DNA of 64,000 nucleotides from Leucoraja ocellata (GCA_036785375.1 JAWMAR010000006.1:3472001-3536000); one strand, 5' to 3'. Shown: positions 12,409 through 30,904, counted from the stretch's first letter. A program made the numbers and translations. Notes: generated by a model not told the origin, from the letters alone.

Positions 12409-13137
12409 TATGTGCATGGTAAACCTGACCTGTTGGGACCAGTGAAAAGATCAAAGTGGTGGAGGGGAGGGGGCACAGAAATAACAGCGAAGGGACAGAA
12501 CCAAGTCCTGATCCCAAAACATTGTCCAGGGTATGGAATGACATTTCTGGTGGAGACCCTTCATCAGAACAGACGGCGGGGAGAAGCGGTCCTGGCCAGA
12601 GACCCTGGTGTTAGCCGCCCCGGCCCGGGCCCGGCCCAGCTTCTTCTCTTCCTCCGCTGACCGCCGGTAGCCTCCATGTTTCCCCATCAGCGGGCAGTGG
12701 CGCGCAAAGATCGTAGAGGGACAAGATAGACCACTCCTTCGAAATTCAATGGGCTGACGTGTAGTACGCAACGGAACGTCACGGCCGCCATTTGTTACAG
12801 CGACACGCGACTTCCGGTATTCCACCCGCTGTGATTCAAAGCAAAGATTATAGAGCTCCGCTATAATCTTTGATCCAAAGCAAAGATCCTCAAGTATCTT
12901 GTAGCGGGAACAGACCCCTCCTTTGTGTAGTTTCCCTTGCATTGTATTGCTTTAACACACACTGCAAAAAATTAAATTTAACGTATATATATTTAATATA
13001 TTTATATGAATGTGTGTCTGTGTGTGAGAGGCAAGTTAGAGATAATAGTTTATTCTCATGTATCAGAAGCTACTTTGATTTAAATAATCGCTATTAATTT
13101 ATTTGTCTTGTAAGATGATATACATAAACCATAAAGG

Positions 13138-13279
13138 NNNNNNNNNNNNNNNNNNNNNNNNNNNNNNNNNNNNNNNNNNNNNNNNNNNNNNNNNNNNNNN
13201 NNNNNNNNNNNNNNNNNNNNNNNNNNNNNNNNNNNNNNNNNNNNNNNNNNNNNNNNNNNNNNNNNNNNNNNNNNNNNNN
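13138..13279. other. Assembly gap (run of N) adjoining an (AT/AC)-rich microsatellite at 13280-13405
   Basis: N characters in the sequence. Confidence 0.99.
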
Positions 13280-13414
13280 ACACACATACATATGGATACA
13301 TTTATATGCATACATACACACATATAAACATATATATACATACATATATACACACATATACATATACATGCATATATATACACATACATATATATTTATA
13401 CATATGATTAACAT

Positions 13415-14950
13415 GTAGAGGAACCAACGAGAGAGCAGGCTATTTTAGACTGGGTATTGAGTAATGAGGAAGGGTTAGTTAGCAATCTTGTTGTACTGCC
13501 CCCTTGGGCAAGAGTGACCATAATATGGTTGAGTTCTTCATTAGGCAGGCAGTGACTAGTGGGGTACCGCAAGGCTCAGTGCTGGGACCCCAGCTATTTA
13601 CAATATATATTAATGATCTGGATGAGGGAATTGAAGGCAATATCTCCAAGTTTGCGGATGACACTAAGCTGGGGGACAGTGTTAGCTGTGAGGAGGATGC
13701 TAGGAGACTGCAAGGTGACTTGGATAGGCTGGGTGAGTGGGCAAATGTTTGGCAGATGCAGTATAATGTGGATAAATGTGAGGTTATCCATTTTGGTGGC
13801 AAAAACAGGAAAGCAGACTATTATCTAAATGGCGGCCGACTAGGAAAAGGGGAGATGCAGCGAGACCTGGGTGTCATGGTACACCAGTCATTGAAAGTAG
13901 GCATGCAGGTGCAGCAGGCAGTGAAGAAAGCGAATGGTATGTTAGCTTTCATAGCGAAAGGATTTGAGTATAGGAGCAGGGAGTTTCTACTGCAGTTGTA
14001 CAGGGTCTTGGTGAGACCACACCTGGAGTATTGCGTACAGTTTTGGTCTCCAAATCTGAGGAAGGACATTATTGCCATAGAGGGAGTGCAGAGAAGGTTC
14101 ACCAGACTGATTCCTGGGATGTCATAGAAACATAGAAACATAGAAATTAGGTGCAGGAGTAGGCCATTCGGCCCTTCGAGCCTGCACCGCCATTTAATAT
14201 GATCATGGCTGATCATCCAACTCAGTATCCCGTACCTGCCTTTTCTCCATACCCTCTGATCCCCTTGTCAGGACTGTCTTATGAAGAAAGACTGGATACA
14301 CTTGGTTTATACTCTCTAGAATTTAGGAGAATGAGAGGGGATCTTATAGAAACTTACAAAATTCTTAAGGGGTTGGACAGACTAGATGCAGGAAGATTGC
14401 TCCCGATGTTGGGGAAGTCCAGGACAAGGGGTCACAGCTTAAGGATAAGGGGGAAATCCTTTAAAACCGAGATGAGAAGAACCTTTTTCACACAGAGAGT
14501 GGTGAATCTCTGGAACTCTCTGCCGCAGAGGGTAGTCGAGGCCAGTTCATTGGCTATATTTAAGAGGGAGTTAGATGTGGCCCTTGTGGCTAAGGGGATC
14601 AGAGGGTATGGAGAGAAGGCAGGTACGGGATACTGAGTTGGATGATCAGCCATGATCATATTGAATGGCGGTGCAGGCTCGAAGGGCCGAATGGCCTACT
14701 CCTGCACCTAATTTCTATGTTTATATTATTTTCCAACGATCAATAGATTTACGATCAGTTCCTGTGGATTGGAGGATAGCTAATGCTATCCCACTTTTCA
14801 AGAAAGGAGCGAGAGAGAAAATGGGGAATTACAGACCAGTTAGCCTGACTTTGGTGGTGTGAAAGATGCTGGAGTCAATTATTAAAGATGTAATAATGGG
14901 GCATTTGGATAGCAGTAAAAGCATTAGTCCAAGTCAACATGGATTTATGA
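13415..14950 (+). mobile_element. CR1-type LINE ORF2 (RT to 3' end) with a nested inverted CR1 3' fragment at ~14124-14266
   Basis: ORF 13504-14127 has SGVPQGSVLGP..F..YINDL...SKFADDTKL, and ORF 14199-14636 continues to the C-terminus. The inserted piece is the reverse complement of the 3' tail at ~14600-14720. Confidence 0.92.
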
Positions 14951-15244
14951 TTTTACAATGCATTTAAGCCTCTCCCATTTTTATGAGATGAATTCCTGGA
15001 ATATGCAGGAAGTTTATTGTAACCTAGTGCTACTTGCCTGAACAATGGATGATATATCACTTAAATGCAATTGTTTTCAGTTGTGTGGAGAGACCTGTAT
15101 ATTGAAAATGTGTTTTGCCTCTAATATGTCAATTTACCTTAAATGTAGAAGAGCTTATTAAAATCTTCTTACAAAGACAATTAAGTATTTTCTATCTATC
15201 CTCTTTTGGACCCAAGGCATAGCAGAGCTGCCAACTCTCACGAA

Positions 15245-15308
15245 GAGGTAAGGGAGGGAGAGATGGAAGGGTGGGAGAGAGGGAAGGGAAGGAGATCGCG
15301 AAGAGAGG

Positions 15309-15342
<34 letters not shown>

Positions 15343-15510
15343 GAGAGAAGAGAGGGGAGCGAGAGATCGAGAGGAGGGGAGAGAGAGATCGAGAGAAGAG
15401 AGGGAGAAGGGGGGAGAGGGAGAAGGGGGAGAGGGAGAAGGGGAAAGGGGGGGACAGGGAGAAGGGGGACAGGGACAAGGGGGAGAGGGAGAAGGGGGAG
15501 AGGGAGAGTG
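15245..15510. repeat. (GA)n / G-A-rich low-complexity tract
   Basis: Direct observation. Confidence 0.9.
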
Positions 15511-16254
15511 GAACGATAGCACATTATAACGCGCAGCCGTCCCATTCCGACCAAAGATTATAGAGCAGAGCTCCACTAGTATCTTTGATTGCGGCCGCCG
15601 CCACCGAACCCCCCAACCCACCATTGCACCCAAAGATGATAGAGCAGAGTTATATAATATTTGATTGCACCCTTCTTCACGGCGGGCTTGTGATGTCTTG
15701 TATGCATGTGAGTGTTGTTTGCTATGTCCCTATGTTCGAGGAATATAACGGGTAACAGCCGCCCATTCTCGGACTCAAAAAATCTCCTGGTCACTGGACC
15801 TAATGTGTCCGCGGGCCATATTGTGCAGACTAATCCCTTACAAAACAAAACCAAAAACGTACAGAAGTGTTAAAATTGTCTTTATTATTGTGGTGAGTAA
15901 AGAACTATTAAAAATAAGTCTAATAACTTTCTAATGTACCGACTAATGTTTCCCAATGGCCGTTGATGGGAGAACAGAAAATACAATTTTCACGACAGAA
16001 TATCGACTGAAAATAATAAAAATATTTTCTCACCTTTCTTTTTTATTGGGGAACCTAAAGAATGACAGGTTGGGTCGTTTAGATTTACGATTAGAATACT
16101 TGATAGCAGAGCAGTGAGATGAAATTTAGATAAGGGCGCCATGACAGTGTGGGGGAAGCTCAATAAAATGCTTAACAATATGGCGTCGACGGTCACACAC
16201 GTCATACTACGCGTTTTTCGAGGAGTGGTCTATCTTGTCCCTCTACGATCTTTG

Positions 16255-16933
16255 GTGGCGCGGGTCACGTGCCGACGGAGTTGGGAGCGCGCGGGGTGTG
16301 AGGCCGCTCGGGGCCGGGAGCGCGCGGTCGGGTGAGGGCGCGGAGCAGAATCAGGCGGGGACGATCAGTCGGGTGAGGGCGCGCAGCTGGAGTCAGGCGG
16401 GGACGCGCAGCTGGAGTCAGGTGAGGGTGCGGAGCTGAGTCAGGCGGGGACGCGCAGCTGGAGTCAGGCGGGGGCGCGGAGCTGGAGTCAGGCGGGGGCG
16501 CGGAGCTGGAGTCAGGCGGGGGCGCGCAGCTGGAGTCAGGCGGGGACGCGCAGCTGGAGTCAGGTGAGGACGCGCAGCTGGAGTCAGGTGAGGGTGCGGA
16601 GCTGAGTCAGGCGGGGGCGCGCAGGATCAGGCCGCTCGGAAGCGGCGCAGGAGTTGAGTCGGGCCGGCGAGCGAGTGCGTGCAAAGCTCTATGATCTTTG
16701 GAGTGTGTGTCCGTCCGACCGTCCACAGCTCCGCGCCCTCCAGTTGCAGGCGGCCTTTGGCCCGTGTCCAGGGTGGGGTTGAGCTCGGTCCGGTCCGGTC
16801 CGGTCCGGTCATCCCCCACCGACCCCGTCTGTCGTCCATGTCCCGGAGCTCGGACATCCGTGAGTCCCCTCTCTTCGTTTGTAAATATGCTTTTGTCTTG
16901 TGATCACCGTGACAATGATTTGCCATCAGGAAG
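16255..16933 (+). promoter_or_regulatory. CTNS: CpG island: probable CTNS promoter and non-coding first exon
   Basis: Very GC/CpG-rich. CLEAR-like GTCACGTGCC at 16264-16273. Candidate donors cc|gtgagt (16860) and aag|gtaggg (16934). It is the nearest CpG island upstream of the ATG exon. Confidence 0.7.
16340..16632. repeat. GC-rich minisatellite, ~24-bp unit GCGCAGCTGGAGTCAGGCGGGGAC, about 11-12 variant copies
   Basis: Direct observation of tandem units. Confidence 0.92.
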
Positions 16934-17652: not shown

Positions 17653-18574
17653 AGGGGGTGTGCACGTAAGGTCCCCGGGCATAGGGCTTGACGCACGGAG
17701 CCGCTCAATCCATCTGGAGGACATCCGTAACTTCCGGTATATGTTATTAATGCAAGATATGCGTACTTTCCTACCTGTTAAAAACCGCCAAAATGTTACA
17801 TTTTTGCGCTGTAAAAAATTGTGGAAATCGGGGTAAGCGTGAGAGACATTTACCCAACTTCAGAATTCCAAAAGTGAAGCGAAATGAAGGTAAAGAGAAG
17901 CGAGAGCTGAAGGGAAGGGATGGGGAGGGGGGGCAACAACAGCTAAAGTGCTTGGCGAACATTGGCCGTGCAGATATCGGAATTGAAAATATTGGGAATT
18001 ATCGCGTTTGCTCACTGCATTTCATCAACAGTAAGGCATTATTTGTGGTTTTTCTTGATTCCTTTGCCGGTATCTAAAAAGTCTCAGAAGTGATCAATCT
18101 GGCTGTAAATTTTGCTTCAGAGGCGTTTTCTTTTTGTATGTAAAAACCCACTTGAGAACCATGGGCGATTTTAAAATCTTACAGTCAGATTTATCGCCTC
18201 TTAAACTTTTTAGATGCCAATGGAATCAAGAAAAAACACAAATAATGGGCCTTAGTTGATGAAATGCAGTGAGCAAACGACCAATATTTGCCATGCACTC
18301 TGTCTGTTGTTGTCCCTTCAGCTCTCGCTTCTATCTACGGTCATTTCTCCTCACTTTTGGAATTCTGAAGTAGGCTAAATGTCTCTCACGCTTATCCCGA
18401 TTTCCATAATTATTTACAGTGCAAAAATTGACAATTTTGGCGGGTTTTAACGGGCCCACTACGCTGGGAAGAATGGTCAGTGCTTACCTGCAGTTCATCG
18501 CGTGTACTCCAGTTGGCGTAGTGTAGCAACAGTCCGGGTCATTGGACGTGACCCGACTGCAGTGAAACCTCCCT
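17653..18574. mobile_element. Fold-back THAP-carrying TIR element (ISL2EU-like) inserted in an older LINE 3' end
   Basis: ORF 17793-18077 MLHFCAVKNC...FRIP...YRVCSLHF carries the THAP C2CH signature. A degenerate reversed copy lies at ~18200-18455. Ends are AGGG.../...CCCT|AT. Confidence 0.75.
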
Positions 18575-28866: not shown

Positions 28867-30693
28867 GTAAGCTGCGTGCTGGAAACATTTGAATATCATT
28901 TCATAACATGAGAAGCCTTATGTGACAAGGACATTTATACATTTGGTGTATTAACTCGTTATCATCTTTCCCACAGCCAACAATGAACCATTGTGGGCTC
29001 CACATTTCCTTAATTATCACTGCTTTCTGCGCATCTTCCATTCATTTGTCCCAAGGACCATCTATAACTCTCGTTCCCCTTTCCCCTGACTTAGACTGAA
29101 GAAGTCTCGATCTGAAACGTCACCTATTCCTTTTATCCAGATCTGCTGCCTGCCTTGCTGAGTTATTCCAGCTTATGGTGTCTGTATACAATTGCTGAAT
29201 TCTGTAAGATAGTCAATTAATTTAATTGGAAATCAAACATCTATTGACGTGTATCTTTTCCATCTGTGGGATGTGCACCACTTTGACAAAGCCACAATTT
29301 ATTGCCAAATCCTGATTGCTCATAAGGTGATGATGAACCACCTTCCTGATCTGCTCCAGTAACTGCAAGGATAATTCACAGGTCATCTTGAGTAGTGAAT
29401 TCAAGTACTTGATCAAGATAAGAGGTGGGTCACCTCTGTTGCTGCAGTATCTGCTCAGTTGTAGGAAATTAATGATAAAAGCAGCAACACTGTCTAGAAT
29501 AGGATGAGGACTGACCATTGTAGTCATCCAGTACAGAAAAAGACCCTTCAGACCACCGTCTCCATGCCAACTATCAAGTATCCATCTATACAAATCCCAT
29601 TTACTAACAGTTCGTTCACAGCCTTCTATGCCCTAGCAATTCAAGCACGTTTAGATGCTACTTAAATGTTATGGGAGTCTCCTTCTTCACCAAGCCCACA
29701 GTTATAAATTTGTGATCACACTCGGGACGAAAAATTCTTCCCTCATATCCCCCTTAAATCTCTTACCCCAGTCCTTAAACCAATTTTTCCTGGTTTTAGT
29801 CATCTTTATTTGGGGAAAGGTGTTGTTTATCCTGCAATATAAATTTAAGAAACTATTTTTCAGATTCAAGAGTCTCCAAAATTATAATCTCTGGATTATT
29901 CGTACACATTCCAGTGAGCATAGGAATAGCAAGATAGATCGGGTGAATTTATGACTATAGATCTGGATAGGAGGGAGTGATAGCTCTAGACTGCTGAATC
30001 GTTGTGATTTTTTTATGGGGAAGGTGGGACATGTAGAAACTAGGCAAGTTGCATCTGAACAGGGATGGGACCAACATCCTTATGGGAGGATTCCTGATGC
30101 TGTTGAGGAGGGACTTGAAGAGATTCACCAGGATCTTGCCCAGGATGTAATGTTTTAATTATGGGCAGAGACTAAGAAAGCCACGTTTCTTTTTGTTGGA
30201 GCAGATGGACATGGGACAGATCTATGAATAATTATGAGGGCATAGATAGAGCAAATAGTAGGAAACTTATCCCGATCGCTGAGATGTCAAAAAAAGGGCA
30301 TAGGTTGGGGTCAGGGTTGAAGAGATTTAGAGGTTCAGTGGAAGAACTCTCACCCACAGGATAATTGTAATTTTGAACATTGCCTGATGGGATGGCGGAG
30401 GTAGGTACGGTCACAACTTATGAATAGTATCTAGACCAGCACTTGAATCAGCAGGCGTAGAAGACTACAGACTAAGTGCTGGTAATGGGATTAAGAAGAT
30501 TAGTTGCAATGGACATAATGAACTGAAAGGAATGTTTTTCGCTGCATGACTTGGGAATTGTGCCTCAAAAATTAATTGTATGTAGAGCTCAATGTGTTTT
30601 AGATTTTGTTTACTATTTGTGAATTGTATTGTAAGCAAATGGATTTATAATGAGCAAGGTGCTACTGCATGACATATTTCTTCTCTATCTCAG

Positions 30694-30793
30694 TGTGGTT
30701 GGATTGAATTTTGATTTTCTGGCGCTGAATCTGACTGGTCATATTGCTTATGGAATGTTCAATGTCGGTCTCTACTGGATTCCTCTTATTAAG
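30694..30793 (+). CDS. CTNS: CTNS coding exon 6
   Basis: 100 bp with AG/GT boundaries. Encodes [33 protein letters not shown]. Confidence 0.97.
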
Positions 30794-30904
30794 GTAATAT
30801 TTAATTCCATATATTACTGTAATATTCAATTTAGTTCTTCCCAAGCACTGAAAACTTGTAGTGATTCCATGTCAGTGCTATCCTGGCCATTGTTCGATAT
30901 GACT

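Follow-up and report, generated by a model that had tools for sequence, protein, structure and literature searches.

Four short remnants in the 64,000-nucleotide stretch of the Leucoraja ocellata genome analysed here (the window) are best read—with a probability that we put at roughly 0.88—as end-joined scars left by the excision of P-superfamily transposons through a long staggered break. Each of the four (12842-12872, 15552-15587, 15631-15663 and 16682-16700) is present as a preliminary description of the window had written it, and the 15-nt tip motif occurs in the genome far above control (3131+3257 matches versus 4+3). That description had read them as staggered-cut footprints, which the variable junctions, 8-bp duplications and sharp limit of the tips bear out. 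Its claim that each lies between 8-bp repeats holds for remnants 1, 2 and 3 (1, 2 and 0 mismatches, respectively) and less well for remnant 4 (7 of 8 positions, offset by one extra base), which lacks, on the plus strand, the CAAAGAT.ATAGAG start ascribed to all four.

Remnants 1–3 reside in a multi-copy P element

Remnants 1–3 are cargo of an internally deleted P element of 3,550 bp (12705..16254; minus strand, in the orientation of the transposase gene), which is delimited by matching TIRs and flanked on both sides by the perfect 8-bp duplication GTGGCGCG (12697-12704 and 16255-16262). The terminal motif is extended by AAGATAGACCACT at 12705 (plus strand) and 16254 (minus strand), and both the left TIR (12705..12744, plus) and the right TIR (16215..16254, minus) consist of an 18-nt tip followed by AAGATAG. 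The element also carries an inserted piece that we take to be LINE-like. Over its first 433 bp it shares 99% identity with a transposase-coding copy; the transposase frame itself is absent from the window copy. A frame-shifted remnant of transposase exon 1, comprising the first half of the THAP domain (16030..16140, minus), agrees, when translated and compared by eye, with exon 1 of full-length copies, and a Pfam scan of this 31-aa piece returned no match.

Remnant 1 (12842-12872; 12834..12880 with both target copies) is a 31-bp sequence, ATTCAAAG/ATCCAAAG, that can be read as a 15-nt and an 18-nt tip joined over a common GC and inherited in the subterminal region of the element; it is found also in paralogues and in transposase-coding copies. 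A second, decayed remnant abuts it (12881..12901), recognized from sequence and alignment, with its right-hand duplication absent. Remnant 2 (15552-15587; 15544..15595 with target copies; 36 bp) reads as 20-nt and 18-nt tips over a common GC, the 18-nt tip being still undecayed in the copy at locus L048, and sits, in the parent element, between the first and second THAP exons. Remnant 3 (15631-15663; 15623..15671 with target copies; 33 bp) reads as a decayed 20+15-2 join in the same intron; both are placed in intron 1 because THAP-like exons flank the pair.

The window element has further copies at loci L001-3, L007-8, L013-15 and L023-24. Among loci with the 15-nt tip, four other copies align to it with the remnants present and their flanks identical; remnant 3 has been lost from one copy (L008), and at least 14 copies of remnant 2 are found among the first 100 strand matches listed. 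As remnants 1–3 recur in many copies with the same flanks and spacing, they are inherited cargo rather than three events at this promoter; most likely each arose a single time, in an ancestral P element with which it was then copied. Their retention in non-coding and coding copies of the family could also be explained if they were functional subterminal repeats of the element and not scars at all. This is extremely improbable: an 8-bp duplication flanks each of them separately, their junctions are of the types seen in free scars, and remnants 2 and 3 show decay, with remnant 3 already gone from the L008 copy, and sister families have no remnants at the matching place.

The subterminal regions of the element (window 12705-12830 and 16130-16254) contain GCCGCCATTT, ACTTCCGG and TGACGT motifs, which are presumably YY1-, ETS- and CRE-like. 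The element may bring promoter motifs to CpG islands.

Parent elements encode a P transposase

A genome search with PF21788 gave 129 matches, and we examined 20 kb around 10 of these, picked by hand for long frames and variety. The terminal motif was found in all 10 regions, including around the best-scoring copy of each kind among those examined, and we could place both ends of the element in 8 and a single end in 2; in 3.3-kb loci around transposase matches, termini were found in 0 of 30, whereas the 20-kb regions had them. Perfect 8-bp duplications flank six of the eight full elements, as well as the window element. The family of the window element is represented by three full elements of 10.5-11.9 kb, two of which contain remnants 1, 2 and 3 and the third remnants 1 and 3.

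A 773-codon frame (the L086 ORF) matches PF12017, PF21787, PF21788 and PF21789, all above cut-off, giving the parent transposase a helix-turn-helix (HTH) and an RNase H domain that is split by a GTP-binding insertion. Compared with the fly transposase 6P5A (E 4e-41), the catalytic residues D230, D303 and E531 are identical (3/3) and seven of eight GTP residues are kept, K400 being replaced by R, on the residue list given in section 6 of PMC7776569. A THAP-like Cys/His motif is divided between two exons, as seen in translations of full-length copies only. Because copies that encode a P transposase have identical TIRs, the remnants likely originate from a P-element clade. The preliminary description had preferred a P-type to a hAT origin, and this is supported; a hAT origin was rejected on finding the CAAAGAT termini around P transposases in the regions examined. 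Several P families have frames of 700-890 codons in copies that are 97-99% alike, many of them on small contigs, and these families have likely been active recently.

A genome-wide class of scars

Two-tip matches of 16-40 bp number 13,054 in the genome versus 1,247 in the control, some 12,000 above chance; intact ends number 5964+6152 (12,116) versus 50+54. Among 50 two-tip matches listed from the first 11.2 Mb of contig C1, 37 are flanked by 8-bp duplications that differ at no more than one position, and none (0/50) has a duplication of 7 or 9 bp. The 13 others comprise 6 with two mismatches and 7 with three or more. By their flanks the 50 matches fall into 29 clusters, of which 5 were dropped because no member combined a duplication of at most two mismatches with a tip of at least 11 nt. 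About half of the matches are thus copies inside other repeats, and independent events therefore likely number in the thousands. At the target sites, T is preferred at position 2 (32/48) and A at position 7.

Rather than the single family of fixed length and fixed junction that the preliminary description had set against its own reading, the 24 independent sites hold 24 different sequences of 21-40 bp, the 40-bp upper length being fixed by the search pattern, a ceiling from which the tip-length tests below are free. The commonest lengths, 31-37 bp, agree with the predicted genome-wide mode near 30-36 bp; the lengths imply cuts 18-20 nt inside each end and not, as had been supposed, 17 nt. For three scars embedded in common repeats, there are empty paralogous sites that hold a single target copy; such sites are available for only three because most flanks are unique among the loci examined, and matches of remnant 1 were excluded from this test as artefacts of the abutting second remnant. 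We saw no pair of alleles of one locus, one filled by an intact element and the other reduced to a scar.

The 8-bp duplications and empty paralogous sites would equally be expected of mobile micro-MITEs that insert on their own, and some junction types do recur at unrelated sites (37 bp, 22/61). Yet the recurring types are those predicted by microhomology, the 24 independent sites show neither uniform length nor uniform sequence, and the inner repeat, which is retained at intact ends (12,116 matches), is missing from the scars. Moreover, at one paralogous site inside a MITE family (L050, L056, L058, L062 and L063) the junctions differ, falling into L050, L062 and L056 types, which suggests separate repair events or re-cutting of a scar. 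We consider independent mobility very unlikely, and excision scars remain the preferred reading.

At L050 (1493-2204), a tandem repeat contains two scars and an intact 562-bp element, all on the 8-bp target CTCAGTAC, and the intact element abuts a scar directly. Loci L004-L030 contain many one-tip remnants, in which a 15-20 nt tip is fused to unrelated DNA; these are likely excisions with flanking deletion. A longer two-tip class of 41-71 bp is also in excess (4,474 versus 1,795 in control). Of 50 listed, 14 were seen by eye to be coincidences inside a repeat that we assume to be SINE-like, the others being nested, compound or chance matches together with a few scars with insertions, and 0 of these 50 loci continues into AAGATAG.

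The flanks of scars are richer in CpG (observed/expected 0.60, n=24) than 73 window tiles (0.38) and 32 chance-locus tiles (0.45), with p 4e-6, and island-like flanks occur at 6 of 24 scar sites versus 8 of 105 background tiles, although this background is crude and 3 of the 24 scar sites fall in the P element itself. To this extent the enrichment at CpG-rich sequence foreseen in the preliminary description is upheld.

Tips stop at a sharp, family-specific point

Genome-wide, 3659+3632 (7,291) strand matches reach the point GAGC|AAGAT, and 26+60 (86) pass it by AA. Among sampled tips, none (0/48) extends beyond this stop point, which was defined after inspection of the data, and 17 of 48 end exactly on it; among the first 30 listed matches to the 15-nt tip, one is intact, one runs one base beyond and 28 end at or before it. 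A one-base overrun was seen in two tips (L021 and L223). Of the 86 matches past the point, 22 clearly continue into the inner repeat by eye, and most of the remainder are explained by the other tip's own letters. Seventeen of the 86 belong to one compound scar repeated at 33-41 kb steps (C8:11.29-11.74 Mb and C1077), which marks a large tandem or segmental array.

The distance from the end of the element to AAGAT is not constant. At 102 intact ends, 18 nt precede AAGAT in 18, 19 nt in 12 and 20 nt in 72, and tip length differs by family and even between the ends of one element, as in an intact 391-bp element with one 20-nt and one 19-nt tip. The 2x17-nt value of the preliminary description is replaced accordingly by tips that stop at 18, 19 or 20 nt. 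At 60 loci genome-wide two full tips are joined blunt, and blunt joins of 18+18, 20+20, 18+20 and 19+20 exist; among 50 listed, 25 are of 36 bp (18+18), 21 of 40 bp (20+20) and 4 of 38 bp, and all 15 blunt joins examined have duplications with at most two mismatches. Among joins with 19-nt tips, 37 bp is found in 22 of 61 (mostly 19+20-2) and 32 bp in 17; A follows the tip in 5 and AAGATAG in none, and there is one blunt 19+20 join. Duplications with at least four mismatches occur in 6 of 29 of this set. A fixed 20-nt ruler is disfavoured, as A or AA would be expected on the shorter tips and is rarely seen. From these tip sequences the stagger is likely 18-20 nt rather than 17, and the depth of the cut appears to be set by sequence and not by distance.

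A sharp stop would say nothing about cut depth if the remnants were extreme internal deletions, produced when gap repair by SDSA was aborted and the ends were joined, or by replication slippage. In the fly, incomplete synthesis followed by end joining gives most repair products (PMC2895639); 22 of the 86 listed matches continue into the inner repeat, as aborted gap repair predicts; and a GC microhomology, which would by itself promote joins, lies at the stop point. The fall from 7,291 matches at the point to 86 two bases further is nevertheless abrupt, blunt joins free of microhomology stop exactly there in the 18-, 19- and 20-nt families, and an AT microhomology just past the point is hardly used. 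Taking these together, we hold such internal deletions to be very unlikely, and favour joining of cut ends.

Remnant 4 is site-specific and lies beside a putative first exon

Remnant 4 (16682-16700; 16673..16708 with target copies; minus strand) is a lopsided 19-bp scar to which one tip, on the minus strand, contributes 15 nt and the other 5 nt, flanked by the imperfect duplication described above. It lies outside the 12705-16254 element, its site is single-copy (a single genome match) and it is the only site-specific one of the four. The contigs of two related organisms, B and C, show no differences over 16682-16700, and an empty allele sought in sequence runs of the same organisms was not found; remnant 4 is likely an old single event at its own site. 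Four RNA reads from organism B span 16699-16860 and stop at a GT donor, so that the remnant likely adjoins a non-coding first exon. A coding exon of cystinosin (CTNS) lies downstream on the same strand (window 30692-30808, plus), and together with the exon that ends at the GT donor it would identify the promoter as that of CTNS. A search directed at a bidirectional CTNS/SHPK promoter returned nothing.

A GC-rich 24-bp tandem array of 10.4 copies (window 16377-16624) separates the element from remnant 4. A THAP domain (PF05485, E 2e-5) lies at window 17751-18454 in an imperfect palindrome of about 700 bp, a separate foldback or MITE-like element in which CAAAGAT ends are absent.

The preliminary description had explained the cluster by repeated insertion and excision at this promoter, through a hotspot or local hopping. 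The 3.55-kb element and remnant 4 do represent two P events at the site, the DNA around scars is richer in CpG than the background, and fly P elements prefer promoters (PMC7776569). Three of the four remnants, however, recur elsewhere in many copies with identical flanks and spacing, having arrived as cargo of a multi-copy element, and a local hotspot is exceedingly unlikely.

Proposed mechanism of scar formation

Insertion would duplicate 8 bp of the target. On excision, one strand would be cut at the edge of the element and its partner at a depth of 18, 19 or 20 nt, just before AAGAT, leaving the donor with two 3′ overhangs that are the tips of the element. End joining would close these in one of three ways: blunt, with a small insertion, or across a microhomology of 1-2 nt, mostly GC. 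We observe directly the scars and the 8-bp duplications around them, the sharp stop, the family- and end-specific tips, the empty paralogous sites and the P transposase between identical TIRs, and infer from these the cleavage itself and the route of repair.

AAGAT, the five-base sequence that follows the stop point, is also found at terminal positions 3-7, and families differ in length at about positions 13-16. On this basis we give even odds to a sequence-placed inner cut, in which the new 5′ end would pair with the 3′ end of the element and leave a single-stranded loop of perhaps 18, 19 or 20 nt; the two ends of a single element would then be cut at different depths. The proposal resembles the fold-back of the fly transpososome, in which the transferred strand forms a loop and base-pairs with the 5′ portion of the non-transferred one, nucleotides -14 to -18 being disordered (PMC7776569, in part); the same source documents the long stagger for the fly enzyme only (17 nt) and calls the route of the ends to the folded form unclear.

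Discussion

The window remnants are very probably P-element excision scars, and mark neither a local hotspot nor a new system. Excision of fly P elements leaves 17-nt 3′ overhangs, which end joining closes through microhomology, blunt or insertion junctions between both target copies (PMC2895639, Table 1). The anatomy seen here—target copy, tip, microhomology, blunt or insertion junction, tip, target copy—agrees with those published footprints, and the system is not the undescribed one that had been suggested. The 8-bp duplication and the catalytic and GTP residues of the transposase (3/3 and 7/8) are also shared with Drosophila. What differs is that tips end here at 18, 19 or 20 nt by family and by end, that full-tip blunt joins occur, and that the scars are standing genomic fossils in their thousands, whereas the fly events were induced in the laboratory.

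Among vertebrates, the zebrafish Pdre2/THAP9 P-like elements, as far as PMC10983969 could be consulted, resemble those described here in their 8-bp duplications and internally deleted copies, but have 13-bp TIRs of another sequence and about 50 copies, compared with some 12,000 intact ends and repeats of at least 30 bp here, and come with no stagger length; excision products placed in the supplements of that paper may bear on stagger length. The P elements and P-MITEs of Anopheles similarly include autonomous elements, repeats of 27-31 bp, 8-bp duplications and MITE derivatives, but the P-MITEs keep whole repeats and subterminal sequence, unlike scars (PMC1562414), and the word ‘footprint’ is absent from the main text of that source. 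In the open literature searched, we found no description of P scars across a vertebrate genome, nor of a stagger that differs from 17 nt; the families may be in Repbase or Dfam.

For repeat annotation these scars call for caution, as they would pass for tiny MITEs. The depth at which vertebrate P elements are cut, which varies by family and by end, can be read from them with no need for an assay, and they yield an exact prediction—a cut directly before AAGAT—that natural copies with long open frames allow to be tested. They also provide many natural products of germline end joining between known ends and, if the inner cut is indeed placed by sequence, thousands of them would constitute a genome-wide record of vertebrate germline end joining on defined long overhangs.
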